Source: an uncultured bacterium (GTDB taxonomy: Bacteria; Eisenbacteria; RBG-16-71-46). From it: a stretch of DNA of 64,000 nucleotides. How positions within the stretch are numbered: the stretch's first letter is position 1; each line of letters starts with the position of its first letter. The notes beneath the pieces are model-generated. The model did not search any database. It worked only from the letters and a program-made list of their open reading frames with translations, and was not told where the DNA came from. This document shows, one piece after another, positions 22,376-62,720 of this stretch. The DNA is taken from NCBI GenBank assembly GCA_964655175.1, contig CAZZLY010000004.1, forward strand, positions 15,465-79,464, read 5' to 3'. A program made the translations under genes and the position numbers.

Positions 22376-23661
22376 AGCGCCTGCTCGTGATGAGCTACTT
22401 CTATCCGCCGCTCGCGGGCGGCGGCGTGCATCGCGTGCTGGCGTTCACGGATCATCTGCGCGCGCACGGTTGGGCGTGCACCGTGATCTGCGCCGGCGAG
22501 CACGACTACTGGGTGCGCGACCCCTCGCTGTCGGCGCGCGTGCCCGCCGAGACCGAGGTGGTCCGCGTGAGCGGGGGCAGCGCGCTCGCGACGCTGCTGC
22601 GCAGCGGTCGTGCGGCGCGCACCGATGGACGTCGCTCGAGCGCGGGCTTCGCGCTGCTGCGTCCGCTCTCGGAGTGGTTCCTGCTGCCCGATTCGTACGT
22701 GGGCTGGTCGCACCGCGCGGCGCGTGCGGCGGCCGCTCGCGTGGCCCATGGCGACGTCGATGCGATCCTGAGTTCGTCGCCGCCCGACAGCGTGCATCTG
22801 GCCGCGGGCCGGGTGGCGCGCGCGAGCGGGCTGCCGTGGGTCGCCGACTTCCGCGATCCGTGGATCGGGCTCAACTTCAAGCGTCCGCCCACGCCGTGGC
22901 ACGCCGCACGTCAGCGTGCGCTGGAGTCGCGCGTGACCGGCGGGGCGGACCTGGTGCTCGCGGCCTCGCGCACGCACCACGACGAACTCGTCGCGCGGGT
23001 CGAGGGCCGCCCGCGACAGGTGCTGCACCTGCCCAACGGCTTCGAGCCCGCGCCCGAGGCGGCGAGCGAGGCGATGCCGTCGACGCACTTCACCGTGGTG
23101 TTCACCGGGACGTTGTCGGGCATGCGCGACGCGGGCACGCTGCTCGACGCGGTCGACCGCGTCGTGCGCGGGACGCCCGAGGCGCGCGGTCGGCTGCGCG
23201 TCGTGCTCGCCGGACCGCTCGACGATGAATGGCCGAAGCGCGCGCACGCGCTCGGGCTCGACGACGTCGTGCACTGGCCGGGCCCGTTGCCGCACGCCGC
23301 GACGCGGGCGCTGCAGCGTTCCGCCGACGTGCTGCTGCTGTGGAAGCCGCAGGGGGAGGGATTCCGAACCATGGTGCCGGGCAAGACCTACGAGTATCTC
23401 GATAGCGGCCGGCCGGTGGTCGCACTGCTGCCCGCCGGCGACGAGGCGGCCGGGCTCGTCGAACGCGCCGGTGGCACGCGGCTCGAGCCCGGGGACGCCG
23501 CGTCGCTCGCGCGCGAACTGGGGGCACGGTTCCAGCGTTGGCGCGACGGCGAGCGCATCGCCGCCGCGCGGCCCGCGTGGCTCGACGAGCATCGTCGCGA
23601 TCGGCTCGCGGCACGTCTGGCGGAATCACTCGCGGCGCTGCCGTCGCGGGGGCGCGCATGA
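22372..23661 (+). CDS. GT4 glycosyltransferase
   Basis: N-terminal MSYFYPPLAGGGVHR (GT4 N-terminal signature) and C-terminal ...PGKTYEYLDSGRPVV. Confidence 0.75.
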   Translation: MKRLLVMSYFYPPLAGGGVHRVLAFTDHLRAHGWACTVICAGEHDYWVRDPSLSARVPAETEVVRVSGGSALATLLRSGRAARTDGRRSSAGFALLRPLSEWFLLPDSYVGWSHRAARAAAARVAHGDVDAILSSSPPDSVHLAAGRVARASGLPWVADFRDPWIGLNFKRPPTPWHAARQRALESRVTGGADLVLAASRTHHDELVARVEGRPRQVLHLPNGFEPAPEAASEAMPSTHFTVVFTGTLSGMRDAGTLLDAVDRVVRGTPEARGRLRVVLAGPLDDEWPKRAHALGLDDVVHWPGPLPHAATRALQRSADVLLLWKPQGEGFRTMVPGKTYEYLDSGRPVVALLPAGDEAAGLVERAGGTRLEPGDAASLARELGARFQRWRDGERIAAARPAWLDEHRRDRLAARLAESLAALPSRGRA

Positions 23662-25178
23662 CCGGGACGCGACTCGAGCGCGCGGCGTGGCTCGTCGCGC
23701 TGCTGTTGTGCGCGGGGCTCGCGTGGCCGCTGCGCGACTACGTCACCGACGACACGTTCATCCATCTGCAGTACGCGAAGCATCTGGCGGCCGGGCAGGG
23801 CTTCGTGTTCAACCCGGGCGAGCCCGTCTACGGCAGCACCAGTCCGCTCTGGGTCATGGCGCTCGCGACCGGCATGGCCATGGGGATCGAGGGCCTGCTC
23901 GTCTCCAAACTGCTCGGTGCGCTCGCCACGCTGGCGGCGCTGTTCCTGTGGTGGCGACTCGCGCAGCAGACGATCGCCGACGCGCGCCTGCGCGCACTGT
24001 CGCTGGTGGTCTGGGCCGCGCACGCGTGGATGTCGCGCTGGTCGCTCTCGGGCATGGAGACGCCGCTCGCGGTCGCGCTCGTGCTGGGCGGTTGGGTGGC
24101 GTACACCGCCACCGAGCGTTGGGGCGAACGGCCGCACGCGGCGGCACTGCTGTGGGCGCTCGCGGCGCTCACCCGGCCCGAGTGCACGCTGCTGCTCGTG
24201 CTGTGGGCGGGGCTGCTCGTCGTGCAGCACGGGCCGCTCGAGGGCGCGCGCCGTGCGCTGCGCGGATTGTGGCCGGCCATGCTCGTCGAGGGCGCGTGGC
24301 TCGCGTTCGCACGGGTGTACTTCGGATCGTTCTGGCCCAACACGCTGGCGGCGAAGGCGGCCGGTGGGGTGGGGCTGGCGTACCACCTCGAGCAGTGGCT
24401 GCGGCAGGGCGCGATCGTCGGGGCGACCGATGCGACGCTGCTGCTCGTGCTCGTCGTGTCGGGGGTCGTGCTCGTGCGACGCGGCGGGCCTCGCACGGCC
24501 ACGCCGTGGACGCACGCGTTGCCGTGGGCCTGGCTCGTGCTCGTGCCCGTGCTGTATTCGCTGCGCGGGGTGCCGGTGCTGTCGCGCTATCTCGTGCCGC
24601 TGCTGCCGGTGCTGGCGTGGCTCGGGTGGTGCTCGCTCGACCGCGCGCTCGTCGGCGCGCGCGCGCGTACGGTCGTCACGATCGCCGGGTTCGTCACGGT
24701 GATCGCGGTGGCGCAGAACGTCGTCGCGTGGCAGCGCCTCGTGCGACCGCAGGTGACGTCGTTCAGCGCGGGCATGCGCGCGAGCCTCATCCCGTGGGGC
24801 CACTGGTTCGAGCGTCACGCCGCACCCGATGCGATGATCGCCGCGCCCGACATCGGTGCGCTCGGTTACTACGGGCAGCGGCGCGTGCTCGACCTGGCGG
24901 GGCTCGTCACGCCCGCGATGGTGCCGGTGCTCGAGCGCATGCCGCAGGAGGACGCGACCGCGCGCTTCGCGTTCGAGTCGTTCGCGCGACCCGAGTTCCT
25001 GGTCGATCGCGCGCCGCGCGCGTGGGATCTGCTCGAGCGCAGTCCGTGGCGTGCGGCGCTCGTGCCCATCGGGCAGGCGTCGCTGCCCAATCTGGGCGTG
25101 GCGCGCCCGGATTCCGCGGTCTATTCGTTCTATCGCATCGATTGGGCGCAGTACGATTCGCTCGCGATGCAGCGCTGA
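23658..25178 (+). CDS. Polytopic GT-C-like membrane glycosyltransferase (ArnT/PMT_2/arabinosyltransferase-like)
   Basis: About 11 TM helices. First-loop acidic motif YVTDDTFIH. C-terminal extracytoplasmic domain. Last gene of the co-directional cluster. Confidence 0.6.
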   Translation: MTGTRLERAAWLVALLLCAGLAWPLRDYVTDDTFIHLQYAKHLAAGQGFVFNPGEPVYGSTSPLWVMALATGMAMGIEGLLVSKLLGALATLAALFLWWRLAQQTIADARLRALSLVVWAAHAWMSRWSLSGMETPLAVALVLGGWVAYTATERWGERPHAAALLWALAALTRPECTLLLVLWAGLLVVQHGPLEGARRALRGLWPAMLVEGAWLAFARVYFGSFWPNTLAAKAAGGVGLAYHLEQWLRQGAIVGATDATLLLVLVVSGVVLVRRGGPRTATPWTHALPWAWLVLVPVLYSLRGVPVLSRYLVPLLPVLAWLGWCSLDRALVGARARTVVTIAGFVTVIAVAQNVVAWQRLVRPQVTSFSAGMRASLIPWGHWFERHAAPDAMIAAPDIGALGYYGQRRVLDLAGLVTPAMVPVLERMPQEDATARFAFESFARPEFLVDRAPRAWDLLERSPWRAALVPIGQASLPNLGVARPDSAVYSFYRIDWAQYDSLAMQR

Positions 25179-25299
25179 CGCGCATGCGGGAGAGGGGCCG
25201 TGCGGGAGTGCACCGCACGGCGCGCACGCCGGGAGCCCACCGGTGACGCGACTGCACGGGCGTGCAGTGCGTCCTTCGTCGCCCCGATGATCTTTTGCT

Positions 25300-25328
25300 T
25301 TGACGCCTCGCCGGGCTTGGCTTATGTT
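25300..25328 (+). promoter_or_regulatory. Sigma70-type promoter of the dcw operon (TTGACG-N17-TATGTT)
   Basis: -35 TTGACG at 25300..25305, a 17 nt spacer, -10 TATGTT at 25323..25328. It sits 75 nt upstream of the mraZ ATG in the only sizeable intergenic gap (225 nt) before the dcw cluster. Confidence 0.5.
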
Positions 25329-25336
25329 GCGCCCTC

Positions 25337-25382
25337 GTGGGGAGCAGTGGGGAAAATTGGTAGCAGAGGGGAAGCAGTGGTT
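25337..25382 (+). promoter_or_regulatory. MraZ-box array: five GTGG(G/T)-type direct repeats with exact 10 bp phasing
   Basis: GTGGGG 25337, GTGGGG 25347, TTGGTA 25357, AGGGGA 25367, GTGGTT 25377. MraZ proteins are known to bind phased GTGGG direct repeats in their own promoter regions. Confidence 0.5.
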
Positions 25383-25402
25383 CCCCATGGAGTGACCCTT
25401 CG

Positions 25403-25852
25403 ATGGCGACGTTTCTCGGCACCGAGAACTACTCGATCGACGACAAGAACCGTCTTGTCGTGCCGGCGGGTATGCGTCGCGTCACCGGTCACAAGGAGCC
25501 CCTCAAGGATTTCGTGCTGATGCGGGGACTCGACGGCTGCATCTGGTTGTACGCCGAAGAGGATTGGAAGCGCCTCGAGGAACTGCTTCAGCGGTTGTCG
25601 ACGGGGAACAAGGACCAGCGCATGTTCGCGAGGACGGCGTTGGTCGGTGCGAACAAGGTGACGGTGGATAAGCAGGGACGCATCACGATCACACCGTCAC
25701 TGATGGACCATGCAGGTCTCCGCAAGGATGCGGTTCTGCATGGTCAGGTCGGACGCATCGAGCTGTGGTCGCCGGAACGGTTCCAGCAGGCGCTGGTCGG
25801 CGACGCGGCGGACTTCGATGCACTGGGCGAGAAGGTCCTGGGAGGCGAATGA
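25403..25852 (+). CDS. mraZ: Transcriptional regulator MraZ
   Basis: Duplicated MraZ/AbrB-like halves with DxxxR motifs (SIDDKNRLVVPAGMRR and TVDKQGRITI). Confidence 0.9.
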   Translation: MATFLGTENYSIDDKNRLVVPAGMRRVTGHKEPLKDFVLMRGLDGCIWLYAEEDWKRLEELLQRLSTGNKDQRMFARTALVGANKVTVDKQGRITITPSLMDHAGLRKDAVLHGQVGRIELWSPERFQQALVGDAADFDALGEKVLGGE

Positions 25853-26310
25853 TGATCGCGCAGACGCTGCCCCGCGATCCGCGGACGTCGGTGGCCATGA
25901 ACCTGCAGCTCACGCGGGGCCGTCACGGCGCCGCGGCGAGGCTGGAGGTGCACGAGCGCCCCGTCGGTCGCGTGGGCCTGCTCGCACTGCGCGGTTGGGT
26001 GGACCTGTCGGCGGCGCAGGGGATCGAGCGCGTGCTCGACGACCTCGCGGTGCGCGGCGTGTCGCGCCTCGTGGTGGACTGCTCGCAGTTGCTGCACGTG
26101 GACTACCGGCTCGTGCCGCGGCTCGCCGAGGCGCTGACGCGCTTCGAGGCGCGCACCGGCGTGGTCGTCATGTGCGGTCTGTCGCGCTACCTGCGCGACC
26201 TGTTCCGGATCGCGGGTTGCGAGTCGCGCCTGTGCTGCTGGCCGAACGCCTCGGACCTGCTGGAGGCCGCTCCCGCGGCCGCGGACTTCGGGTGTGAGCG
26301 CGCGTCATGA
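25849..26310 (+). CDS. STAS-domain protein (anti-sigma-factor-antagonist fold) inserted between mraZ and rsmH
   Basis: ATG overlaps the mraZ stop (ATGA) and the 3' end overlaps the rsmH start by 17 nt. STAS-like pattern ...RVGLLALRGWVDLSAAQGIERVLDDLAVRGVSRLVVDCSQLLHVDYRLVPRLAEALTRFEARTGVVVMCGLSRYLRDLFRIAGCE. The canonical phosphorylatable Ser of the SpoIIAA DSSG motif is replaced (VDYRL). The ORF exactly fills the 440 nt mraZ-rsmH gap. Confidence 0.6.
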   Translation: MMIAQTLPRDPRTSVAMNLQLTRGRHGAAARLEVHERPVGRVGLLALRGWVDLSAAQGIERVLDDLAVRGVSRLVVDCSQLLHVDYRLVPRLAEALTRFEARTGVVVMCGLSRYLRDLFRIAGCESRLCCWPNASDLLEAAPAAADFGCERAS

Positions 26311-27214
26311 ACCGGTCCTCCTGCGCGAGACGCTCGCCTTCCTGGCGCCCGGTCCCGGCCTGTGGCTCGACGCCACGCTGGGCGACGGTGGCCATGCGGA
26401 GGCCCTGCTGCTCGCCTCGAGCGAACTCCGTCTGCTCGGCAGCGATCGGGACCTCGGCTCCCTCGCCTTCGCGCGTGCGCGGCTCGCGCGTTTCGGGGAT
26501 CGCGTGACCACCGTGCACGGCACCTTCCGCGACCTGCCCACCGCGCACGCCGCGCTGGGCGGTGAGAAGCTGCGCGGGGCGCTGTTCGATTACGGCCTGT
26601 CGTCGGCGCAGATCGACGACCCGGCCCGTGGCATGAGCTTCCGTTTCGACGGCCCGCTCGACCTGCGCATGGACACGAGCCGCGGTGAGACGCTCGCCGA
26701 TCGCCTCGCGACCGTGACCGAGGAGACGCTGGCCGACGTGCTGTGGACGTACGGCGACGTGCGCGCCTCGCGTGCGGTCGCGCGCGCGATCGTGGCGGCC
26801 GGGCGCGAGGGTGCGCTGCGCGGCACGCAGGATCTGGTGACGGTGGTGGGTCGCGCGCTGCGCGACACGAGCCCGGCCGCGGTCGCGCCCGTGTTCCAGG
26901 CGCTGCGCATCTGGGTCAACGACGAGATGGCCGACCTCGAGGGCGCGCTCGCGTGGCTGCCCGAGGCCATGGCCGACGGTGGGGTGGTGGTCACGCTCGC
27001 GTACCACTCGGGCGAGGACCGGCGCGTGAAGCAGGCGCTGCGCGGTCCGCAGCGCACGGTGTCGCGTCGGCTGCCGCCGAGCGCGGACGCGGTGATCGCG
27101 AGCCCGTGGGAGGAGCTCACCCGCAAGGTGGTCGTACCGTCGGACGAGGAGCAGGCCCGTAATCCCCGCGCGCGCAGTGCGCGTCTCAGAGCGTTCCGGA
27201 GGAAGCCGAGATGA
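26294..27214 (+). CDS. rsmH: 16S rRNA (cytosine1402-N4)-methyltransferase RsmH (MraW)
   Basis: GTLGDGGH and SAM-binding motifs; FDYGLSSAQIDDPARGMSF; HSGEDRRVK. Confidence 0.9.
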   Translation: MSARHEPVLLRETLAFLAPGPGLWLDATLGDGGHAEALLLASSELRLLGSDRDLGSLAFARARLARFGDRVTTVHGTFRDLPTAHAALGGEKLRGALFDYGLSSAQIDDPARGMSFRFDGPLDLRMDTSRGETLADRLATVTEETLADVLWTYGDVRASRAVARAIVAAGREGALRGTQDLVTVVGRALRDTSPAAVAPVFQALRIWVNDEMADLEGALAWLPEAMADGGVVVTLAYHSGEDRRVKQALRGPQRTVSRRLPPSADAVIASPWEELTRKVVVPSDEEQARNPRARSARLRAFRRKPR

Positions 27215-27648
27215 AGAACCCGTGGCGGCATTCCGTCCCGTCGTGGCATGCGGTCGAGCCGCGTGCCGGTCAGCTCCTGCGCCTGTGGTGGGTGCCGGTG
27301 CTGGCGCTGGTCCTGTTGTTCGAGGTGTGGCAGCACACGCAGGTCGCCAGTCTCTCGGTGCAGGCCGACAAGGCCGGTGAGGCGCGGCGACTCGCGGACA
27401 ACGAGCTGGAGTGGATGCGCACCCGGCTCGACCGTGCCGCGACGCGTGCCGAGGTGAGCGAGTTGGCCGCCGAGGTGGGGGTGCGTCCGGGGGACACGAA
27501 CCAGATCGTCTGGCTCCCCGCGGATTATCTCGAGGAGGACGGAGGCGTGGCGAACCCGGACGGTTCGCCGGCGCTGCTCGCTCAGGCGGGCCGTGCCCTC
27601 CAGTCGCTCGTGCCGGACGCCTCGGCGCGGGGACGTCATTTGGACTGA
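27211..27648 (+). CDS. ftsL: Cell division protein FtsL-like (single TM plus coiled coil)
   Basis: Position between rsmH and ftsI. One TM helix (LLRLWWVPVLALVLLFEVW) followed by a coiled-coil-like segment. ATGA overlap with rsmH. Confidence 0.6.
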   Translation: MKNPWRHSVPSWHAVEPRAGQLLRLWWVPVLALVLLFEVWQHTQVASLSVQADKAGEARRLADNELEWMRTRLDRAATRAEVSELAAEVGVRPGDTNQIVWLPADYLEEDGGVANPDGSPALLAQAGRALQSLVPDASARGRHLD

Positions 27649-27754
27649 TCCGATCCGTCGGACATCCGAGGATCGGCCCGTTGGGGGGCCGCGCCTCAGC
27701 ACCGCGCAAGTGGGTCGGCGGCCTGCGTGAACCGCCGTTCCAAGGAGGGAACAG

Positions 27755-29914
27755 TTGGCCCACAAGGAGTTGCGCAAGAGTCGGGTGCTGGTGGTGGCGG
27801 CCCTTCTTCTTTCGGTTTTCATCGTCGTCTGGCTGCGCGTCTTCACGCTGCAGACCGTGCTGCACGAGCACTTCGCCGCACGCGCGCGTGAGAACCAGCA
27901 GCACCACGAGAAGATCCTGCCCCGTCGTGGCGTGATCAGCGACCGTCACGGCGAGGTGCTCGCGCACGACATCGGCGTGAGCCAGGTCGCGGTCTATCCG
28001 CCGCAGCTCAAGGAGCACGCGCGCGCCGCGAAGGTGATCGGCGAGGCGCTGGGGATCCCCGAGGCCAAGCTGCTCAAGCAGCTCAAGTCGCTCAAGAGCT
28101 ACACCTGGATCGCGCGCGAGGTGCCGCCCGAGCAGGGCCTGCGCATCCGCCAGGCGCGCCTCGAGGGCGTCGTCGTCGAGGACGAGACGCGGCGGTTCTA
28201 CCAGCTCGGCAACGCCGCGTGCGAGGTGCTGGGGCGCACGAACCTCGACAACGTCGGCGTGGACGGGATCGAGTACCAGTACGAGGACGCGCTCGCGGGC
28301 CGCGTCGGTTGGACGACCACGGTGCCCACCGGCAGCTCGCGCGTGCAGCTGCGCCTGCCCGGCGCCGAGGGCCGTCCGGCGCGCGACGGCAGCTCGATGG
28401 AGCTCACGATCGACGCCGAGCTGCAGAGCATCGTCGAACAGCATCTGGCCCGCGCCGTCGATTCGCTCAACGCCAAGCGCGGGTTCGCGATCTTCATGGA
28501 CCCGTGGTCGGGCGAGATCCTCGCCGCCGCCTGCGCGCCGCACCTGCCGCCGGGCGCGGCCAAGAACTGGAACTTCACCGACCAGTACGAGCCGGGCTCG
28601 ACGTTCAAGGTCGTGGTCGCGGGCGCGACGCTCGAGGAGCACAACGCGCGGCCCGATCAGGTGTTCAACGCCGGCACGAACGGCGCGGCGGAGCTGACCC
28701 CCGGCTGCGTCATCCACGACACGCACCCGCACGGCGCGCTCACGTTCCGCCAGGCGGTGCAGTACTCGAGCAACATCGTCATGGGCCGTCTCGCGCTGCT
28801 GCTGGGCGCCGAGAAGCTGCACCGCTACGCGACCGCGCTCGGCTTCGGCAGCATGACCGGTGTCGAGTTCCCGGGCGAGAGCGCGGGGCGCCTGCGCCCG
28901 CTGAGCGTGTGGCAGCCGCGGTCCACGCCCACGGTCGCGATCGGGCAGGAGGTCACGGTCACGCCGCTGCAGCTCGCGCTGGCGTACTCCGCCATCGCCA
29001 ACGGCGGCGTGCTCATGGAACCCATGCTGGTGCGGTCGATCCGCGACGCCAACGGCCGCGAGGTCCGCCGCAACACGCCGCAGTCCTCGCACCGGGTGTT
29101 CAGCGAGGCCACCACGCGCACGCTCATGGACATGCTGTGCGCGGTCGTGGACAGCGGCACCGCGACGACCGCACGCCTGCCCGACGTGCGCATCGCGGGC
29201 AAGACCGGCACCGCGCAGAAGGTGGACCCGCGCACCCGTCGCTACGGCGCCGGCATGTACATGGGCTCGTTCGCCGGCATCGCGCCGGCCGATCACCCGC
29301 GCATGGTCGGCGTGGTCGTCATCGACGAGCCGCACGGCGCGCACTACTACGGTGGCCTCGTGGCCGCGCCGGTGTTCCGCGAGGTCGTGCTCGACCTGCA
29401 GCGCGTGGGTTGGTCCGGGTTCGACAACACCAATGCGGCGATCGCGCTGCGTCCGCCGGTCGTCCCCCCGGTGACCGCGCCCGATCTGCGGCTGCTGCCG
29501 CCCCAGGCCGCCGAGCACCGGCTCGCCGAGTACGGTCTGCACGTGCGCTTCGAGGGCAAGGGGCCGCGCGTGCTGTCGCAGGTGCCGCCCGCGGGGCAGG
29601 CGATCGATCGCGGTGCGGTCGTGCTCGCCTATCTGGCGGCACCGCAGGACTCGGTCGGCCGATCGCTGCCGAACCTCGTGGGTCTGCCCGTGCGCGAGGC
29701 GATGCGCCGGCTGTCGCAGCGCGAGGTGTCCGTGCACATCACCGGCAACGGCTTCGTGACCCGTCAGGAACCGCCCGCGGGCGTGCCGCTGCCGCTGCAG
29801 GGCCCGTGTCGGCTCTGGTGCGCACCGCACGAGGACGGTCGGGTCGCGGTCGTGAGCGAGCGCGCCGAGCGCGGCGTCGTGACGCCGACGTCCGGACGGA
29901 CCCGTCGACCGTGA
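27755..29914 (+). CDS. ftsI: Peptidoglycan D,D-transpeptidase FtsI (PBP3 class B) with two C-terminal PASTA domains
   Basis: TTG start preceded by an AAGGAGGG RBS. N-terminal TM, PBP dimerisation domain, transpeptidase motifs (STFK, SSN, KTGTA), then two PASTA-like repeats (LPPQAAEHRLAEYGLHV..., LVGLPVREAMRRLSQREVSV...). Confidence 0.9.
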   Translation: MAHKELRKSRVLVVAALLLSVFIVVWLRVFTLQTVLHEHFAARARENQQHHEKILPRRGVISDRHGEVLAHDIGVSQVAVYPPQLKEHARAAKVIGEALGIPEAKLLKQLKSLKSYTWIAREVPPEQGLRIRQARLEGVVVEDETRRFYQLGNAACEVLGRTNLDNVGVDGIEYQYEDALAGRVGWTTTVPTGSSRVQLRLPGAEGRPARDGSSMELTIDAELQSIVEQHLARAVDSLNAKRGFAIFMDPWSGEILAAACAPHLPPGAAKNWNFTDQYEPGSTFKVVVAGATLEEHNARPDQVFNAGTNGAAELTPGCVIHDTHPHGALTFRQAVQYSSNIVMGRLALLLGAEKLHRYATALGFGSMTGVEFPGESAGRLRPLSVWQPRSTPTVAIGQEVTVTPLQLALAYSAIANGGVLMEPMLVRSIRDANGREVRRNTPQSSHRVFSEATTRTLMDMLCAVVDSGTATTARLPDVRIAGKTGTAQKVDPRTRRYGAGMYMGSFAGIAPADHPRMVGVVVIDEPHGAHYYGGLVAAPVFREVVLDLQRVGWSGFDNTNAAIALRPPVVPPVTAPDLRLLPPQAAEHRLAEYGLHVRFEGKGPRVLSQVPPAGQAIDRGAVVLAYLAAPQDSVGRSLPNLVGLPVREAMRRLSQREVSVHITGNGFVTRQEPPAGVPLPLQGPCRLWCAPHEDGRVAVVSERAERGVVTPTSGRTRRP

Positions 29915-32825: not shown

Positions 32826-32828
32826 CGC

Positions 32829-37583: not shown

Positions 37584-37584
37584 C

Positions 37585-38976
37585 GTGTACGGGAGCACGC
37601 ACCGGATCCACTTCATCGGGGTCGGCGGCAGCGGCATGAGCGGGCTCGCCGAGGTGCTCCTCAACATGGGCTACATGGTGAGTGGCAGCGACCTCAAGGC
37701 GACCGAGGTCACCGACCGCATCGTGAGTCGCGGCGGCCGCGTGTTCACGGGTCACGCCGGCTCCAACGTGGACGGCGCCCAGGTCGTGGTCTACTCGTCC
37801 GCGGTCAAGCCCGACAACCCCGAACTCGTCGCCGCGCGCGCGGCCGGCATCCCCGTCATCTCGCGCGCCGACATGCTGGCCGAGCTCATGCGCATGAAGT
37901 ACGGCGTCGCGGTCGGCGGTTCGCACGGCAAGACGACCACGACCAGCATGGTCGCGGCGGTGCTGCAGCGCGGCGGGCTCGACCCGACCATCGTCGTGGG
38001 CGGCCGACTCAAGACGCTCGGGGCCAACGCCCAGCTCGGGCACGGCCGCTTCCTCGTGGCCGAGGCCGACGAGAGCGACGGATCGTTCCTGCGGCTCGCG
38101 CCCGCGGTCACGGTGATCACGAACATCGATCGTGAGCACCTCGACCACTACAAGGACCTCGACGACATCCGGCAGGCGTTCGTGTACTTCGCCAACCGTG
38201 TGCCGTTCTACGGCGTCACGGTGCTGTGCGTGGATGACGAGAACGTGCGCGGCATCCTGCCGCAGTTGACCAAGCGCCACATCCTGTACGGCACCGTGCC
38301 CGAGGCCGAGGTGCGCATGACCGGGCTCGAGCTGGTCGGCTCGGGCTCGCGCTTCACGGTCGAGGGCGGGGGGCGCGTGCTCGGCACGGTCACCCTGCAG
38401 GTGCCCGGTCGGCACAACGCCATGAACGCGCTCGCCGCGGTGGCGGTGGGGCTCGAGCTCGAGATCGGGTTCGCGCACATCGCCGAGGCGCTGGCGGGGT
38501 TCCACGGCGTCGGCCGCCGCTTCGAGCTGCGCGGCGAGGTCGCGGGCGTGCGCGTGGTGGACGACTACGGCCATCATCCGACCGAGGTCGCGGCGACGCT
38601 CGCCGCGGCGAAGCAGGTGGGCGGCCGCGTCCTGGTCGTGTTCCAGCCGCACCGCTACTCGCGCACGGTGGCGCTGCAGCGGGAGTTCGGCGCGTGCTTC
38701 GGCGATGCCGACCGCGCCTTCGTCATGGACGTGTACGCCGCCGGCGAGGCGCCGATCCCCGGCGTGAGCGGGCGGACCGTGGTCGAGGCGGCCGTCGCGC
38801 AGGGCGCGACGCACGTCGTCCACACGCCCACGGCCGAGGCCGCGCTCGAGGCGGTCCTGCGCGAGGCGCGCGCCGGCGACCTGGTGCTCACGCTGGGCGC
38901 GGGCGACGTCTCGAAGCTGGGCGACCGGGTACTGGACGGCCTGCGCGCCGCCACGGGTGCGGGGGAGACGCGATGA
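37585..38976 (+). CDS. murC: UDP-N-acetylmuramate--L-alanine ligase MurC
   Basis: HFIGVGGSGMSGLA; GSHGKTTTTSM; GTG start two nt after the murG stop. Confidence 0.9.
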   Translation: MYGSTHRIHFIGVGGSGMSGLAEVLLNMGYMVSGSDLKATEVTDRIVSRGGRVFTGHAGSNVDGAQVVVYSSAVKPDNPELVAARAAGIPVISRADMLAELMRMKYGVAVGGSHGKTTTTSMVAAVLQRGGLDPTIVVGGRLKTLGANAQLGHGRFLVAEADESDGSFLRLAPAVTVITNIDREHLDHYKDLDDIRQAFVYFANRVPFYGVTVLCVDDENVRGILPQLTKRHILYGTVPEAEVRMTGLELVGSGSRFTVEGGGRVLGTVTLQVPGRHNAMNALAAVAVGLELEIGFAHIAEALAGFHGVGRRFELRGEVAGVRVVDDYGHHPTEVAATLAAAKQVGGRVLVVFQPHRYSRTVALQREFGACFGDADRAFVMDVYAAGEAPIPGVSGRTVVEAAVAQGATHVVHTPTAEAALEAVLREARAGDLVLTLGAGDVSKLGDRVLDGLRAATGAGETR

Positions 38977-39803
38977 GCCGTTATCAGGGGAAGGCGCTGG
39001 CGCGCGAGCCGCGCGAGCGGGGTCCGCGCCGCAGTCCGGTGCAGCGGGTGCTGCGGGTGCTCGTGGCCATGGCGATCCTGGGTGGGCTCGCCATGGTGCC
39101 GTGGGGCCGCATGCGTCGCGAGCTGCTGGTGCTCGATCACGTCAAGGTGAGCGGGCTGCGCTATCTGGACGAGAGCGTCATCCGCAAGCGGTCGGGGCTC
39201 AAGAACGGGCAGGATCTGCTGGCGCTCGATCTGACGCGGGTGCGGCAGCTGGTGCTGCTCGAGCCGCGCCTCGAGTCGGCCAAGGTGCATCGCCACGGGT
39301 TGCGCGGCGTCGAGATCAAGGTCGTCGAACGCGTGCCCGCGCTCATGGTCGAGCACGGCGAGCCGTGGGAACTCGATGCCGAGGGCGTGCTGCTCGAGCC
39401 GTTGCAGACCGGGGTCGTCGCCGACGTGCCCATGCTGGTCGGTCCCAACCTGGAGAATCGTCTCCCCGGCAGCCTCGTGCAGACGCCCGAGGTGAAACGA
39501 GGACTGGCGTGGACGGCCGTTTTGAATGACAATGCGCTCCGGCTCACCGGACAGGTCTCGGAGGTCGACGTCACCGATCCGCGTGTCACCCGTCTCGTCA
39601 TGATGAATGGCGTGCGCGTCGTGGCACCGGCTTGGCCGAACGGCGCCCGACAGTTGTCCGGACTGCGAGCCACACTCGCCGACCTCCACGCGAAAGGCAT
39701 GATGCCACGCGAGGTCGACGTGCGTTTCAAGGATCAGATCGTCGTGCGCGGCGCGAGGCCCGAAGCCCCGGTCGCCACGACCACGACATCTCGCGAGAGT
39801 TAG
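38973..39803 (+). CDS. ftsQ: Cell division protein FtsQ (POTRA domain)
   Basis: N-terminal TM (VLVAMAILGGLAMV), then a POTRA-like region (LVLDHVKVSGLRYLDESVI). Sits directly between murC and ftsA. Confidence 0.75.
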   Translation: MSRYQGKALAREPRERGPRRSPVQRVLRVLVAMAILGGLAMVPWGRMRRELLVLDHVKVSGLRYLDESVIRKRSGLKNGQDLLALDLTRVRQLVLLEPRLESAKVHRHGLRGVEIKVVERVPALMVEHGEPWELDAEGVLLEPLQTGVVADVPMLVGPNLENRLPGSLVQTPEVKRGLAWTAVLNDNALRLTGQVSEVDVTDPRVTRLVMMNGVRVVAPAWPNGARQLSGLRATLADLHAKGMMPREVDVRFKDQIVVRGARPEAPVATTTTSRES

Positions 39804-39824
39804 CCCACGAGGGAGGGACCCCCC

Positions 39825-41063: not shown

Positions 41064-41126
41064 TCCATCACGCCGAGCGCACTCGGGCCGGGAGCCCGGG
41101 GCCTCGAACACTGGAGGGTTCCCCGC

Positions 41127-42338: not shown

Positions 42339-42349
42339 GGTCCGCGTGG

Positions 42350-43989
42350 CCTTCCTGAGGTCGTTGGTGAAGTGGGGGCACAACCGCCGCTACAACGAGG
42401 GCATCCTCCACTTCAATCAGGGCGACTTCGAGCGGGCCGCCGAGTGCTTCGAGCGGGTCCTGCAGGAGGTCCGGGATCCGGACGATCCCGACCACTGCCT
42501 GGCGCTCGTGCACGCGGCGGAGGCGCGCGCCAATCTGGGACTCGCGTACCTGCAGGCGGGCGACCACGCCCGCGCGGAAGCCGAGTTCACGCGCGCGCTC
42601 GACGAGAACCCCACGTTCCCCGACCTGCGCTACCAGCGCGCGCGCCTGTACGAGCGCTCGGGCCGACTCGCCGAGGCGGTGGCCGACCTCGAGCGTGCGA
42701 TCGACGAGCACCCGCACTACATGGAGGCGCACCTGCTGCTCGCGGTGTGCCTCGGGGCGCTGGGCGATCGCGAGCGCTCGTCGGCCGAACTGGGCGAGGC
42801 CCTCACGCTGGGACTCGAGGCGCCCGACTGGGTGACGCCCGAGGTCGCGCGCGAGTGGAGCGGGGAGCAGTGGCGTCGGCTGTTGCCCGGCAGCAGCGAC
42901 CGCGCCGTGCATCGCAGTCCTCTCGATGACGCGCTCGCGCGGCAGCAGGCGGGCGATCTCGACGGTGCGGTGGCGGCGTTGCTGCAGGCGGTCCACGACA
43001 AGCCCGGCTACGCCGACCTGCGCTGCCGCCTCGCGGGCCTGCTGCTCGAGGCCAAGCGCCTCGACGAGGCGTTGGGCCATCTGCGCGTGGCGCTCGAACT
43101 CAATCCGCGTTACCTCGAGGCGCGCCTGCTCGCCGCGCGCGTGCAGTTGGAGCGCGGGGATGCGCGCGGCGCGGAGGCGCACGCCCTCGCCGCGCTCGAG
43201 ACGTACCCGCAGTACCCCGACCTGTGGTTCTGGCTGGGGCTGGCGCGGTTCCGTGCCGCCGACCTCGAGGGCGCGCGCGAGCCGCTCGAACGCGCCGTCG
43301 ATCTCAATCGCCAGTTCGCGCGCGCCCAGCGCCTGCTCGGGCTCGTCTACCACGCGCTCGGTCGTCAGGACGACGCGCTGCGCGCGGTCCGGCGCGGGCT
43401 CGCGCGTGGCAGCGAGGCGCCGCGCGCCGCGCTCGCCGAGTCGCAGATGCTGTACGAGCTCGGTGACCTGAACGGGGCGGAAGAGGCGGTGCGGCGCGCG
43501 CTGGGGCTGTCGCCCGAGTGGCCCGATCTGCACTTCGCGCTCGCACGCATCCTGCGCGCGCTCGACCGGCTCGAGGAGGCGTCGGCCGCCTACGATCGCG
43601 CGCTCGAGTTGGCGCCCGGCTACGACGCGGCCGCGCTCGAGGGTGCCGCGCTCGCGATCGAGATGGCGCGACCCGAGCGGGCCGAGGGCCGCCTCGTCGC
43701 CCTGCTCGGTCGTCGGCCCCGCTGGGCCGACGCGCATGCGCTGCTGGGCCGGGTGCGGCTCATGCGCGACGATGCCGCCGGGGCCGAGACCGCGTTGCGA
43801 GCGGCGCTCGAGTTGCACCCGGGCTTCGCCGCCGCCCGCGCCGACCTGGGCTGGGCGCTGCTGCGACTGGGCCGCGCGACGGAGGCCGATGCCGAGTTCG
43901 CGCAGGCGCTCGAACTCGACCCGTTGCACGCGCTGCCGCGCGAGCAGATGGCCTGGCGCGAGCTGCTCGTGCCGACCCGCGACGCCTGA
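42350..43989 (+). CDS. TPR-repeat protein immediately downstream of ftsZ
   Basis: About 14 TPR-like repeats (for example AEARANLGLAYLQAGDHARAEAEFTRALDENPTF). Start codon uncertain: GTG at 42350, with TTG/GTG at 42368/42371 as alternatives. No terminator between ftsZ and this gene. Confidence 0.65.
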
Positions 43990-47177: not shown

Positions 47178-48962
47178 TCAGCGCGCGATCAGCACCCGGT
47201 TCGTCGTCGTGGTGGTCCCGCGGCGCACCTGCACGAAATACATGCCGGGTGCCTGCCGCGAGCCGTCCCACGTGATCGAGTGGGCACCGGACGCGAACGG
47301 CGCGTCGGCGATCACCGCGATCTCGCGGCCCTGCAGGTCCACGACGCTGGCGCGGACGTGTTCGTCACGCGACACCGCGAAGCTCAACGTGATGCGTCCC
47401 GCCGTCGGGGTCGGCCCGACGTTCACCCGCAGCGCACCGTCCAGGCCCGCCGCCGTCGGCTCGGTCGAGCGGCCATCCCGCTCGTTCTCGACGACCGGCG
47501 CATCCGAACCCATGATGTGCTGCATGCCCTTGGCCCACACGAGGGCGGCCACGTCACGGCCCATGCGGCGCGAGATCAGGTCGCCGTCCTCGAAGTGGAT
47601 GCCGCCCAGACGCCGCGAGATGCCGGCCTCGTCGGCCGCCTCGCTGAACGTGCGCCAGCGCAGCGTCACCGGACGCGACGGGGCGAAGCCCGGCTCGACC
47701 TTGCTGCTGCCGGCGGCGATCGTCACCGAGTGATCGAAGTCGTCGCTGCCCGTGAAGCGCTTGAGGATCTCGGCCGACGACGAGCTGAACGCGCTGTGGC
47801 CCGACGGGAACTCGGAGAACGGCGGCGTCACGAACGTGGCCGGCTGATAGGGCATCCACGCCTCGCCATCGACCAGCCCACGACCCTGGAACGGGATGTA
47901 ACCGCGCACCTTCTGGCCCGCGAACAAGTAGCGCACCGCGGTGATCGGGCGCTCGGAGTCGTAGTACACCTTGGCGTCCCACACCGCGATGCCGGCGTCC
48001 ATGACCGCGTTGCCGAGCAGGAAGAACATCTTCACGTCCTGATCGAACGTGTGGTGGTCGCGCGCCGACACCAACTCGGCGAACAACGTCCAGTGGCCCG
48101 GGGGCAGTTCCGACTTCGGGCCGTCCGCCCAGTACTCGGCGATCACCTTGCCGCGGTCGTCGAGGTGCTCGGTCAGTTCCATGACGTCGCGCGCCTGACG
48201 CTCGTACTCACGGCTCGGGAAGCGGGCCGGGCCCACCGCGGGGCGCAGCGCGTCGCCCGTGGGCATGCCGAACGGCTTCACGTGACCCCAGTGCGCACCG
48301 ATGTAACCCGGCACCACGAAGCCACCCGCACCGTTCGAGAACCGCAGCGGCTGCCAGCGATTGGGGTCGCGGATCGCATCCACCGTGTTCACCGGCTGAT
48401 AGCCGGTGTAGTCGGTGTACGCCCCGGCGTGCAGGTCGCCCAACTGGTTCGAGCCGTCGTGGTGACGCTCGTCGAGCAGCACCTTGGAGCAGGTGTTCCC
48501 CACGCCCTGCGCGGTCGTGGTGCCGAGCGTCTGGTCGTCGGCGTCGTAACCGAGCGCCAGCATCTTGGCGCGGATCAGGTCGCGGCCGGCGGGGAAGATA
48601 TCCTGCATGGTGCGCGCGACCGCGTAGCTGTACGCCTTCTCGCGGTTGGCGGCGGTGCGTTCGGCGGCCGGCCGACGGAAGTCGCCCATCGGGACCGTGG
48701 GCACGGCGACGTCGTCGTAGCACGACCACGCGTCGAAGCCGGCGGTGTGCACCAGGCCGATGCCGCGTGCGACCATGGGCGGGCCGAGCTTCTGGATCCG
48801 GATGCACTGCAGCAGCACCTCGTTCCACTGCACGACCAGCGTGGGGTCCGTGGCGGGTTCGATCACGTGACCACGGCCGTCCTCGGCGTGAGCGGCGGCG
48901 GCGAGGACGAGGCTGGCGGCGAGGGCCAGTGCGGACAGGAGGCGGATGTGACGGGACTTCAT
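47178..48962 (-). CDS. Secreted PAP2 / vanadium-dependent haloperoxidase-like protein with T9SS-type C-terminal domain
   Basis: Signal peptide MKSRHIRLLSALALAASLVLAAAAHA. PAP2 / acid-phosphatase-haloperoxidase motifs (PSGHSAFSSS and SRRLGGIHFEDGD). The C-terminal roughly 80 aa (...GRITLSFAVSRDEHVRASVVDLQGREIA...GMYFVQVRRGTTTTTNRVLIAR) resemble the C-terminal domain of the 17961..20261 protein. Confidence 0.75.
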   Translation of the reverse strand: MKSRHIRLLSALALAASLVLAAAAHAEDGRGHVIEPATDPTLVVQWNEVLLQCIRIQKLGPPMVARGIGLVHTAGFDAWSCYDDVAVPTVPMGDFRRPAAERTAANREKAYSYAVARTMQDIFPAGRDLIRAKMLALGYDADDQTLGTTTAQGVGNTCSKVLLDERHHDGSNQLGDLHAGAYTDYTGYQPVNTVDAIRDPNRWQPLRFSNGAGGFVVPGYIGAHWGHVKPFGMPTGDALRPAVGPARFPSREYERQARDVMELTEHLDDRGKVIAEYWADGPKSELPPGHWTLFAELVSARDHHTFDQDVKMFFLLGNAVMDAGIAVWDAKVYYDSERPITAVRYLFAGQKVRGYIPFQGRGLVDGEAWMPYQPATFVTPPFSEFPSGHSAFSSSSAEILKRFTGSDDFDHSVTIAAGSSKVEPGFAPSRPVTLRWRTFSEAADEAGISRRLGGIHFEDGDLISRRMGRDVAALVWAKGMQHIMGSDAPVVENERDGRSTEPTAAGLDGALRVNVGPTPTAGRITLSFAVSRDEHVRASVVDLQGREIAVIADAPFASGAHSITWDGSRQAPGMYFVQVRRGTTTTTNRVLIAR

Positions 48963-58270: not shown

Positions 58271-59689
<1,419 letters not shown>

Positions 59690-60033
59690 GGCGCACCCCG
59701 CCCCGGACCGGGGGCGGTCAAAATCCGTCGCCCCGCGTGCCGGGGCGGTCGGGAATCGAGCGGCCGGACCCCTCGCGGGACCGGCCGTTCGCCTTTCTGG
59801 CCGGGAGGGCGACGGTCGGGAGGGTCGGCCCGGGACCGATCGGGCATGCGAATCGCAAGGTGATGCCGTGCAGCATGTTGTGCGATTCCAAAAGGCGTGG
59901 CCCAGGGCTCCGGGACCGCCCGGACGGGGGGCCAGAGGTGGTCCGAGGGGGCCGCCGGGCGTCGTGGCACGAGGGGTGCAAAACAGTCCGGTGAACGGAT
60001 TCTCGCCAACCCCCAGCGCACGGAGCCACACGA

Positions 60034-60431
60034 TGCCCCACATCCTGATCGTCGAAGACGAGCCGACGATGTCCTGGGCCCTCGCCGAAGGGCTCTCGGA
60101 CGACGGCTACACGATCGACACCTTCCGCACCGCGGAAGAGGCCCTGCACTGGCTCAAGACGAACCGCAGCGACCTCGTCATCACCGACTACCGCCTGCCC
60201 GGCTTCTCGGGCCTCGAACTGGCGACCAAGCTGTCGCGCGGCCGCAACGCGCAGCCGGTGATCGTGGTCACCGCCTACGGCAACACCGACACGATGCGCG
60301 AGCTGCTGCGCGCCGGCGTCGCCGAGGTGTTCCCCAAGCCGTTCCACGTCGACGAGCTGCGCCGCGCCGTGCGCCGCGCGCTCCTGAGCCGTCCCGAGCG
60401 TCGTCGCGCCCCGCTGCGGAGGGCCGCATGA
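60034..60431 (+). CDS. CheY-like single-domain response regulator receiver
   Basis: ILIVEDEP...DLVITDYRLPGFSGLEL...VIVVTAY...K: a complete receiver fold with no output domain in this ORF. Confidence 0.8.
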
Positions 60432-60432
60432 A
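60415..60432 (+). repeat. 18 nt exact direct repeat TGCGGAGGGCCGCATGAA (copy 1) at the receiver / sigma4 gene junction; copy 2 at 60660..60677
   Basis: The identical 18-mer spans stop, RBS and start at two consecutive gene junctions 245 nt apart. Both upstream proteins end in (L/M)RRAA. Confidence 0.8.
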
Positions 60433-60676
60433 CGCCCGCCTGCCGAAGAAGGTCGCCGCGCTGCCGCTGCGCGTGCGTCTGGCCGCCGCCCTCGAGGCGC
60501 TGCCCGAGACCGATCGTCGCGTCCTCACGCTGCGTCTGCTCGAGGGCCTGTCGGCCAGCGAGACCGCCGGCGCGCTGAACCTGCGCCCCGCCGACGTCGA
60601 GCGCCGCACGACGCTGGCGCTCACGACTCTGTCCACCGAACTGGGCGTCCGTACCCCGATGCGGAGGGCCGCATGA
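60428..60676 (+). CDS. Sigma70-region-4 (ECF sigma region 4_2)-only protein; possibly the split-off output domain of the upstream receiver
   Basis: LPETDRRVLTLRLLEGLSASETAGALNLRPADVERRTTLALTTL is a sigma-70 r4_2-like HTH. ATG overlaps the receiver stop (ATGA). Receiver plus this ORF total 214 aa. Confidence 0.55.
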   Translation: MNARLPKKVAALPLRVRLAAALEALPETDRRVLTLRLLEGLSASETAGALNLRPADVERRTTLALTTLSTELGVRTPMRRAA

Positions 60677-60900
60677 AGCCGTTCGTCCCCGTCACCGCGT
60701 TGAGCGACCCCCGTCGCGCGATGCCGACCGATCCGACGCTGCGCCTGCGCGCCGCCGACGCGGCGGTCGAGTCCCTGACCGCCGAGCAGCGCCGCCTGGA
60801 CCGCATGGGTCTCGAGTGGCCGCTCGCGCGCACGCAGCAGCAGCTGCGCTACTGGCGATTCGTGCGTGCGCTGTGCGCCGTCGCCGCGGAGGCCGCGTGA
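60673..60900 (+). CDS. Small hypothetical protein (75 aa) upstream of the FlhG-like ATPase
   Basis: ATGA-coupled to the previous ORF and GTGA-coupled to the next. No recognisable motif; it occupies the position where flhF is usually found. Confidence 0.35.
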   Translation: MKPFVPVTALSDPRRAMPTDPTLRLRAADAAVESLTAEQRRLDRMGLEWPLARTQQQLRYWRFVRALCAVAAEAA

Positions 60901-61793
60901 GCAAGCGTGCGTCGAAGGGCCCGATGAAGGTCGTCGAGGGGGGCCGCACGGCGGCCGAGTTCGGTCCGGCGCACGCCGCCGAACTGACCCGTCCCAAGGT
61001 CCGCACGATCGTCGTCGCCAGTGGCAAGACGGGCGTGGGCAAGAGCAGTGTCGCGGCGAACCTCGCGGTCGCGCTGGGTCAGCGCGGTGCGCGCGTCGTG
61101 CTCGTGGACGCCGACCTCGCGCAGTCGCATCTGGACCTGCTCCTGGGCGTGCACCCGCGTTACGACCTCGGTCACGTCATCGAGCGTCAGCGCACGATCG
61201 ACGAGATCGTCGTGCCGGGGCCCACGGGCGTGACGCTCGTGCCCGGACCCGCCAGCACGCGCGCCATCACGTCGCTCGACGACTTCCGTCGCGAGACGTT
61301 CCTGCGCTCGCTCAGCATCGTGGACCCGGCCGCGGACCTCATGATCATCGACGCGCCCTGGGGCTTCGGCCGCGAGACGCTCGAGCTGTGCCGCATCGCC
61401 CACGAGGTCCTCGTCGTCGCCTCGACCGAGGTCATGTCGCTGCCGGACGCGTACGCGCTGCTCAAGGCGCTGCAGAAGGCCGACGCGCTCACCCGTGCGC
61501 CGCGTCTGCTCCTCAACATGGCCACCACCGAGGACGAGGCGGACGAGATCGCCGCGCGCATGTCGGTGTTCGCCCGCCACTTCATGAAGCTCGACATCGA
61601 GTCGCTGGGCAGCATCCCGTACGACCACGCGGTCACGCGGGCCGAGCACGCCCAGGAGCCCCTCGTGCTGTCGCAGTCGCAGTCCCCGGCCGCCGTCGCG
61701 ATCCGTGCGCTGGCGACCCGGATGTGGAAGCCCGCCCCCACGGGTCCCGACTTCGTCGAAGAGTCGGATCTCTCTCGCCGCCTCGGAGCCTAA
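60897..61793 (+). CDS. flhG: MinD/ParA-family ATPase, FlhG (FleN)-like flagellar number regulator
   Basis: Deviant Walker A SGKTGVGKSS; ParA/MinD core; located directly upstream of fliA. The start may be the ATG at 60924. Confidence 0.65.
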   Translation: MSKRASKGPMKVVEGGRTAAEFGPAHAAELTRPKVRTIVVASGKTGVGKSSVAANLAVALGQRGARVVLVDADLAQSHLDLLLGVHPRYDLGHVIERQRTIDEIVVPGPTGVTLVPGPASTRAITSLDDFRRETFLRSLSIVDPAADLMIIDAPWGFGRETLELCRIAHEVLVVASTEVMSLPDAYALLKALQKADALTRAPRLLLNMATTEDEADEIAARMSVFARHFMKLDIESLGSIPYDHAVTRAEHAQEPLVLSQSQSPAAVAIRALATRMWKPAPTGPDFVEESDLSRRLGA

Positions 61794-61803
61794 GGAGACC
61801 GCC

Positions 61804-62700: not shown

Positions 62701-62720
62701 GTCACGGGGGAGAGGCCACC

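Follow-up and report, generated by a model that had tools for sequence, protein, structure and literature searches.

What is a gene for a STAS-domain protein doing between mraZ and rsmH, a gene pair that ranks among the most conserved in bacteria? We asked this for a stretch of 64,000 nucleotides (nt) from contig CAZZLY010000004.1 of an uncultured bacterium of the Eisenbacteria (assembly GCA_964655175.1; the whole stretch is called the window below), in which an open reading frame (ORF) on the forward strand at 25849..26310 lies between these two genes at the head of the cluster of division and cell-wall genes (dcw). We find that this ORF is a real gene, under selection and apparently translated, and that its product appears to represent a distinct, dcw-embedded STAS subfamily, termed dcw-STAS here, which should not be phosphorylatable on Ser or Thr. 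We propose, with a probability of about 40%, that dcw-STAS is a constitutive binding module that modulates the MraZ/RsmH pair, most likely the repression of the division operon by MraZ.

A STAS Gene Packed between mraZ and rsmH

The ORF follows mraZ (25403..25852, forward strand), which encodes a 149-amino acid protein with DxxxR DNA-binding motifs at D13..R17 and D89..R93, and precedes rsmH, also called mraW, which encodes the 16S rRNA m4C1402 methyltransferase (26294..27214, forward strand, with a GTG start at 26294). The mraZ stop and the rsmH start are 441 nt apart. An earlier note on this DNA had described a 153-residue STAS-fold ORF at this position, tightly packed against both neighbors, and this is indeed what we found, with the coding signal in the ORF's own frame. 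The ATG at 25849 shares the sequence ATGA with the TGA stop of mraZ, and the 3' end of the ORF overlaps the start of rsmH by 17 nt. In this dual-coding segment (26294..26310, forward strand), the STAS C-terminus E-R-A-S-stop is read together with the rsmH N-terminus V/M-S-A-R-H-E. A second ATG at 25852 (TGATG, a 1-nt overlap with mraZ) would give a protein of 152 residues. It is better spaced from a Shine-Dalgarno-like GGGAGG located within the 3' end of mraZ (25840..25845, forward strand), which lies 3 nt from the first and 6 nt from the second ATG and is kept as CTGGGAGGCGAGTGATGG among the closer orthologous loci. Most orthologues are 152 residues long and begin with MV or MI, in agreement with a start at 25852, which may be the true start rather than 25849. 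The junction with mraZ is tight under either start codon, and the arrangement suggests that the STAS gene is translationally coupled to its neighbors.

The presence of an ORF by itself proves nothing in this DNA, because the window is GC-rich (71.6% G+C) and crowded with spurious long ORFs, several of which run across the STAS region. It could thus be argued that the ORF arose by chance in a GC-rich spacer, or that a spacer was kept for translational coupling alone. We consider this explanation refuted. The G+C content at codon positions 1, 2 and 3 of the STAS frame is 0.75/0.51/0.93, resembling mraZ, rsmH and ftsL, and a third-position value of 0.93 is seen in this frame only. Two overlapping ORFs, at 25710..26297 on the forward strand (0.81/0.75/0.58) and at 25744..26097 on the reverse strand, lack this third-position signature and were rejected as true genes. 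A codon log-odds gene caller, for which 21 long window genes served as the training set, chooses 25849..26310 with a score of 58.9, next to 50.3 for mraZ and 52.6 for ftsL. The median ratio of nonsynonymous to synonymous substitution rates (dN/dS) in 120 pairs of STAS orthologues is 0.20, and the protein, which passes both Pfam STAS thresholds and is confidently predicted to adopt a STAS fold, is 47-93% identical across 53 species.

Conservation of the Arrangement across Eisenbacteria

Database searches returned 250 homologues of the STAS protein with E<=1e-3. The best 120 of these are ~150 residues long and 57-93% identical, and those among them that carry a name are entered as 'STAS domain-containing protein [Candidatus Eisenbacteria].' We surveyed the corresponding loci using one genome per GTDB species, which gave 53 loci, many of them from unclassified metagenome-assembled genomes. 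Where a phylum is recorded, it is Candidatus Eisenbacteria, except for one locus labelled Candidatus Acidiferrales. Flanking genes were identified by tblastn with MraZ, STAS, RsmH and FtsL from the window. The order MraZ-STAS-RsmH was found in every sufficiently long locus, with both flanks confirmed in 51 of the 53; the other two (L012 and L059) run into contig ends and have one flank each, consistent with the same order. Two divergent members of the Eisenbacteria type (P0146 and P0142) also have these flanks where their contigs reach. The earlier note had regarded lack of conservation in related high-GC genomes as grounds for abandoning the gene; instead, the insertion recurs in all 53 species loci.

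The gene junctions are conserved as well. Across the Eisenbacteria loci, the spacing between mraZ stop and STAS start ranges from -4 to +6 nt. Both ends of the STAS-rsmH overlap could be placed in 53 loci; in 51 of these it measures exactly 17 nt, and heuristic placement gives 11 and 23 nt in L011 and L057, respectively. The overlap is fixed because the TGA stop of the STAS gene is built from the rsmH codons CAT-GAN (CAT-GAA in the window), which was the case in 54 of 54 loci. These codons specify the His-Glu/Asp of the conserved N-terminal RsmH motif H(E/D)PVL. CAT accounts for just 19% of the His codons in window genes, and the bias toward CAT at the STAS stop is clear despite the kinship of the 54 loci, which come from related species and hence do not represent 54 independent events. 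As the STAS stop lies inside the N-terminal RsmH codons, the conserved STAS C-terminus ERAS is partly a by-product of dual coding.

Relatives in Myxococcota and in a Third Lineage

We searched 1.84 billion cluster representatives with a profile of the family and recovered three tiers of sequences. The first consists of 22 clusters below 1e-30. The second is a tail of the Eisenbacteria type that retains the N-terminal motif 'NLELSHGRHGA'; in some of its members the D-Y-R motif has decayed (IAGRQ, LGDRV, VDAGR), with Gly, Ala, Asp or Pro, and never Ser or Thr, in place of the Tyr. The third tier comprises proteins of ~128 residues without the N-terminal extension, which contain H-[LVF]-D-Y-R-x-V-P and G-L-S-x-Y-L. 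These are entries from cultured Myxococcota of the genera Archangium, Myxococcus, Corallococcus, Pyxidicoccus, Hyalangium and Stigmatella, named 'STAS domain-containing protein' or 'anti-sigma factor antagonist'; the extension motif is missing from the 125-129-residue Myxococcota homologues. We found the order MraZ-STAS-RsmH in seven Myxococcota loci. One of them lies in the completely sequenced genome of Myxococcus stipitatus DSM 14675 (CP004025.1), where the order continues as MraZ-STAS-RsmH-FtsL-FtsI-MurE. The metagenomic loci L060, L068 and L071 are assigned to Myxococcota too, because their MraZ proteins are 83-95% identical to those of Myxococcus and Archangium. Comparison of the Eisenbacteria and Myxococcota STAS alignments (A1 versus A2) with hhalign gave a probability of 99.3%, an E value of 3.9e-20 and 29% identity, which indicates that the two families are homologous.

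A third lineage is represented by a contig with 54% G+C (L072; ENA ERZ27227667, contig k141_4560314, 1..1454), in which the C-terminus of MraZ is followed by STAS (P0192, with the motif HADYR) and RsmH; both neighbors share just 30-40% identity with their counterparts in either phylum. On this contig, the first 8 nt of the STAS gene overlap the end of mraZ, and rsmH begins 4 nt past the STAS stop. A signature H-x-D-[YF]-R ... S-x-Y is common to the lineages (alignments A1, A2 and A4), and in every context examined, without exception, a STAS gene occupies the slot between mraZ and rsmH. Identity between the two phyla is 33-43% for STAS, 36-38% for MraZ and 40-42% for RsmH. A recent horizontal transfer between the two phyla is not supported, as the STAS identity is no higher than that of MraZ or RsmH; we take the STAS gene to be an expressed member of the dcw operon that is inherited vertically.

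Some of the recovered records deserve separate mention. An ENA protein of 214 residues (P0287) reads as an in-frame fusion of STAS and RsmH seen in a single record, and a long contig (L064; ERZ25039556, contig_34868) has fragmented dcw genes; both look like assembly or frameshift artefacts. In the Myxococcota loci L063, L065, L066, L067 and L068, a divergent PilZ-domain protein of ~237-240 residues is encoded just upstream of mraZ, and this gene is absent from the Eisenbacteria loci.

A STAS Fold with a Substituted Switch Residue

The window protein scores 40.1 bits with Pfam STAS_2 (cut-off 29.2) and 35.0 bits with Pfam STAS (cut-off 22.6), so that both models (PF01740/PF13466) lie above their gathering thresholds. 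The NCBIfam models for anti-sigma antagonists were missed, TIGR02886 with 16 bits (cut-off 114.75) and TIGR00377 with 26.6 bits (cut-off 53.45), and membership in the anti-sigma antagonist family, as suggested by the first description of the ORF, is not supported by these scores. We calculated an AlphaFold2 model using 20 orthologues, which has a mean predicted local distance difference test score (pLDDT) of 78, a predicted template modelling score of 0.73 and a core with pLDDT >90. The predicted structure is an alpha/beta fold of the SpoIIAA type, in which helices alpha1 to alpha4 accompany a central beta-sheet. Its top Foldseek matches in the PDB are SpoIIAA (1tid, 1til), a mycobacterial antagonist (4qtp), RsbV (6m36), RsfB (8ih8) and RsbS (6jhk), with MlaB and SLC26 STAS domains placed lower; the comparison with SpoIIAA and RsbV advised at the outset thus finds both among the best matches. 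Compared with canonical STAS proteins, the model contains an extra N-terminal strand at residues 14-20. This strand and a GRHG loop make up an Eisenbacteria-specific extension with the motif N18-LQLTRGRHGAAARLE-33 (codons at 25900..25947, forward strand), of which R25, H26 and G27 are retained in 51, 47 and 52 of 54 species, respectively.

In a hidden Markov model alignment with SpoIIAA (1th8, 1tid), the segment ...qlrhiDYRlvP... is placed opposite ...QLTFMDSSGLG..., which puts Tyr-86 on the first Ser after the Asp. We take this Ser to be the phospho-acceptor of SpoIIAA. Tyr-86 belongs to the sequence H83-V-D85-Y86-R87 at the beta3/alpha2 junction (26095..26109, forward strand), and helix alpha2 starts at residue 86 in the model. 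A second signature, S112-R-Y114, is found at the beta4/alpha3 junction (26182..26190, forward strand). His-83, Asp-85, Arg-87 and Ser-112 are invariant in 54 Eisenbacteria species, as are Gly-24, Arg-31, Asp-77, Gly-110, Asp-117, Arg-120 and Gly-123; Tyr-114 is retained in 52 of them, and both the Ser and the Tyr of S-x-Y are invariant in the cross-lineage alignment A4. Position 86 is occupied by Tyr in 48 of these species and by Phe in the other 6, and positions 82-87 are free of Ser and Thr in all 54. The replacement of the SpoIIAA phospho-serine by Tyr, noticed earlier in the single window sequence, is supported by the alignment. With an aromatic residue standing in for the acceptor Ser/Thr, the protein should not be able to act as a kinase/phosphatase-driven switch, and by this alignment Ser/Thr phosphorylation at position 86 can be considered excluded.

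A Tyr exactly at the phospho-acceptor position could point to a switch of a different kind, in which Tyr-86 is phosphorylated by a BY-kinase (bacterial tyrosine kinase) or a Hanks-type kinase. We find this scarcely credible, as the residue is Phe in the species mentioned above and in a protein from Myxococcaceae (P0289, HLDFR), and the divergent members have Gly, Ala, Asp or Pro in its place. These same variants indicate that the hydroxyl group of Tyr-86 is dispensable.

The most conserved residues of the family, H-x-D-Y-R and S-x-Y, are located where helices alpha2 and alpha3 begin. In SpoIIAA, the phospho-serine sits on this face (SpoIIAA:SpoIIAB structures 1TH8 and 1TID), and in our model dcw-STAS may use the canonical STAS interaction face. 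These His, Asp, Tyr/Phe, Arg, Ser and Tyr side chains, clustered at the two helix N-termini, could also be viewed as a putative anion (phosphate or nucleotide) site. In such a small-ligand sensor, a nucleotide or a cell-wall precursor bound in place of the phospho-serine would control the conformation of the protein or its binding to a partner. The decay of the D-Y-R motif in the most divergent Eisenbacteria-type members (IAGRQ, LGDRV, VDAGR) would be unexpected for an essential site, and we regard a ligand sensor as distinctly unlikely.

The Eisenbacteria STAS proteins are rich in cysteine (Cys-78, Cys-109, Cys-124, Cys-129 and Cys-130 in the window protein), and three of these residues are conserved (Cys-78 in 48, Cys-109 in 51 and Cys-124 in 44 of 54 species). 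Cys-78 and Cys-109 are located on the predicted strands beta3 and beta4, suggesting a possible redox-sensitive pair. We set aside a family-wide redox switch through these two residues, since the Myxococcota homologues lack the cysteines.

Absence of Partner-Switching Genes from the Neighborhood

The earlier note had pictured the ORF as a partner-switching-type module. This part of its proposal is not supported by the genes around it, as neither an RsbW/SpoIIAB-type HATPase kinase nor a PP2C/SpoIIE phosphatase is encoded among the ~55 genes of the 64-kb window, and no sigma factor gene is adjacent. A group-3 protein encoded at 61804..62700, ~35 kb from the STAS gene, is the sole complete member of the sigma-70 family in the window. 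In related loci, no cognate kinase, phosphatase or sigma factor was found in flanks of ~4-5 kb.

The protein could nevertheless be a classical anti-sigma antagonist whose partner is encoded elsewhere. It would bind an RsbW/SpoIIAB-type kinase without being switchable by phosphorylation, and its abundance, set by an MraZ-controlled promoter, would titrate the anti-sigma factor and so tie a sigma regulon to the division operon. The best sequence and structure matches (SpoIIAA, RsbV, RsfB and RsbS) would fit such a function, as would the location of H-x-D-Y-R and S-x-Y on the SpoIIAA phospho-serine face and, in spite of its distance, the group-3 sigma factor. This explanation has to contend with the lack of a kinase or phosphatase gene in the window and with the low TIGR00377 score, and it leaves the invariant position between mraZ and rsmH in three lineages unexplained. 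We therefore see it as possible and rather doubtful. Still more improbable is an MlaB-like accessory protein that would attach to and stabilize the nucleotide-binding subunit of an ABC (ATP-binding cassette)-type ATPase such as the division ATPase FtsE or an Mla-type transporter; mlaF, mlaE or mlaD neighbors were not found, and MlaB is not the closest structural match.

A Possible Role in the MraZ/RsmH Circuit

We analyzed the control region of the operon by pattern scan. A sigma-70-type promoter (TTGACG, a 17-nt spacer and TATGTT) at 25300..25328 on the forward strand is the likely Pmra driving mraZ-STAS-rsmH. It is the sole forward-strand promoter-like site in 25000..27800, and no promoter- or terminator-like sites were detected within 25403..27214. 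Downstream of the promoter, five GTGGG-like boxes with an exact 10-bp spacing are found at 25337..25383 (forward strand, starting at 25337, 25347, 25357, 25367 and 25377). MraZ is known to bind GTGG-type motifs spaced ~10 bp apart, through which it represses its own operon (bioRxiv 10.1101/2022.02.09.479790). The boxes fit these described repeats and thus form a putative MraZ operator of textbook appearance in a candidate phylum. The flanking genes were assigned by profile matches: MraZ matches Pfam MraZ (E 3.3e-29) and TIGR00242 (112.7 bits, cut-off 98.35), and RsmH matches Pfam Methyltransf_5 (E 2.2e-76) and TIGR00006 (234.7 bits, cut-off 154.3). The MraZ DxxxR residues are invariant in an alignment of 34 paired MraZ-STAS sequences (A3).

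We propose the following role for the ORF at 25849..26310. Its product is a single-domain STAS protein of the dcw-STAS subfamily, defined by H-x-D-[Y/F]-R at alpha2 and S-x-Y at the start of alpha3. Because the gene is located on the same MraZ-autoregulated transcript as mraZ and rsmH and is packed against both, dcw-STAS would be produced in constant proportion to MraZ and RsmH. It would bind its partner constitutively, using the face with which SpoIIAA and RsbV contact theirs and which is the most conserved surface here, and would thereby modulate the MraZ/RsmH pair, most likely the repression of the division operon by MraZ. In E. coli, co-expression of the next gene, mraW, relieves the toxicity of MraZ, whereas B. 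subtilis shows no such rescue by MraW (bioRxiv 10.1101/2022.02.09.479790).

Within the MraZ/RsmH circuit we favor MraZ as the partner, on evidence that is thin. A link of the STAS gene to MraZ activity or to septation, as the earlier note imagined, may be read from the invariant gene position only. When FtsI was controlled for, the pairwise distances of STAS and MraZ showed a partial correlation of 0.45, next to 0.20 for STAS and RsmH and 0.22 for STAS and FtsL, a weak and unconfirmed hint. Several observations weigh against our proposal. Covariation of branch-length rates among five proteins (non-negative least squares on a neighbor-joining topology) did not bear out this hint, with a residual r of -0.09 for STAS and MraZ, no better than the -0.14 for STAS and RsmH. 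In Myxococcota, the STAS gene begins 46-63 nt after mraZ and ends 6-12 nt before rsmH, with no overlaps, and tight coupling is thus not universal in the family. Among relatives with solved structures, the closest are without exception GHKL-kinase partners or subunits of stressosomes, and none pairs with a DNA-binding protein or a methyltransferase. Finally, gene position alone can mirror co-expression with division genes rather than an interaction with the neighbors.

A more specific possibility is that dcw-STAS is a dedicated third component of the MraZ/RsmH system, which would use its modified 'phospho-site' face to bind MraZ or RsmH directly, perhaps prompted by a phosphate-bearing metabolite, and thereby set dcw transcription. 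The supply of FtsL and FtsI would follow the level of dcw transcription. We put this forward tentatively and consider it unlikely in this detailed form.

Surroundings of the STAS Gene in the Window

The remaining dcw cluster extends from 27211 to 42338 on the forward strand and contains, in this order, an ftsL-like gene (27211..27648), ftsI, murE, murF, mraY, murD, ftsW, murG, murC, ftsQ, ftsA and ftsZ, as assigned by NCBIfam equivalog matches, the Pfam FtsQ POTRA domain and gene calls. murC directly adjoins ftsQ (37585..39803), and murB and ddl are not part of the dcw cluster. ftsZ is followed by a gene for a tetratricopeptide repeat protein of 547 residues (42346..43989).

Upstream of the dcw head, the window contains a polysaccharide biosynthesis cluster. 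A protein of 506 residues without a Pfam match is encoded directly upstream of mraZ (23658..25178, forward strand). Genes of similar size that likewise lack a Pfam match (516, 521 and 503 residues) occupy that place in L001, L004 and L069. The 506-residue protein thus looks conserved; it is probably membrane-bound and tied to the glycosyltransferase cluster.

A regulatory cluster is located at 58271..63999. It encodes a sigma-54 activator (a response regulator with an AAA+ domain), a single-domain response regulator, the group-3 sigma factor, which has regions 2, 3 and 4, an 82-residue ORF with sigma-70 region 4 (60428..60676), a ParA/MinD-like ATPase and a GGDEF protein. This cluster shows no link to the STAS gene. 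The reverse strand at 47181..48962 encodes a secreted protein with DUF6851, a helical domain resembling that of vanadium chloroperoxidase, and a Por_Secre_tail domain for sorting by type IX secretion.

Significance and Comparison with Known Systems

In the literature outside subscription-only journals, we found neither a STAS gene described in the mraZ-rsmH slot nor any account of an H-x-D-Y-R subfamily. A study of dcw synteny makes no mention of STAS, Myxococcota or Eisenbacteria (PMC8871954), and a Francisella study in which a STAS protein appears was irrelevant. Public databases already contain the proteins themselves, those of complete Myxococcus genomes among them, under generic names assigned automatically. 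What looked like an odd insertion in one genome thus becomes a conserved gene family of the dcw cluster, a lineage-wide feature of Eisenbacteria shared with Myxococcota. dcw-STAS offers a natural handle on the functional relationship of MraZ and RsmH, because it has been kept between them in three lineages, is under purifying selection and has a switch residue that is not phosphorylatable. As the arrangement occurs in species of Myxococcus and Archangium that are cultured and amenable to genetics, the hypothesis is testable without recourse to uncultured Eisenbacteria. A subfamily of STAS proteins that function independently of Ser/Thr phosphorylation also widens the range of functions that may be hidden behind annotations as 'anti-sigma antagonist.' If dcw-STAS indeed were a dedicated third component of the MraZ/RsmH system, it would represent a new regulatory input into bacterial division, at least in Eisenbacteria and Myxococcota.

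We compared dcw-STAS with STAS proteins of known function. SpoIIAA and RsbV have the same fold, belong to the same size class and provide the best matches in sequence and structure, and their conserved residues are likewise positioned at the N-termini of alpha2 and alpha3. dcw-STAS differs from them in having Tyr or Phe in place of the acceptor Ser and in scoring below the TIGR00377 cut-off. Its gene is part of the dcw operon rather than of a sigma-factor operon, with no kinase or phosphatase gene nearby, and the Eisenbacteria form adds the N-terminal strand and the GRHG motif. The similarity in fold to the stressosome proteins RsbS and RsbR is high, but the window contains no neighbors of the rsbR, rsbS, rsbT or rsbX type, and the phospho-serine of RsbS is absent from dcw-STAS.

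The Mycobacterium tuberculosis proteins RsfA and RsfB are anti-anti-sigma factors and partners of UsfX, and RsfA is non-phosphorylated and redox-regulated. They provide a precedent for STAS antagonists that are controlled by means other than Ser phosphorylation, and RsfB (8ih8) is among our structural matches. dcw-STAS from Eisenbacteria bears conserved cysteines (Cys-78, Cys-109 and Cys-124); these are not kept in Myxococcota, however, and the genomic context is different. MlaB from the lipid transporter MlaFEDB is a non-phosphorylated STAS protein that acts purely by binding its ATPase partner. Its structural similarity to dcw-STAS is weak and lower than that of the anti-sigma antagonists, and no mla or ABC genes are adjacent to the STAS gene.

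The dcw cluster of the window, finally, closely follows the canonical mraZ-rsmH(mraW)-ftsL-ftsI head, with the promoter, the MraZ boxes and the mur and fts genes all present in the usual order. It departs from this plan in having an extra, conserved gene between mraZ and rsmH.

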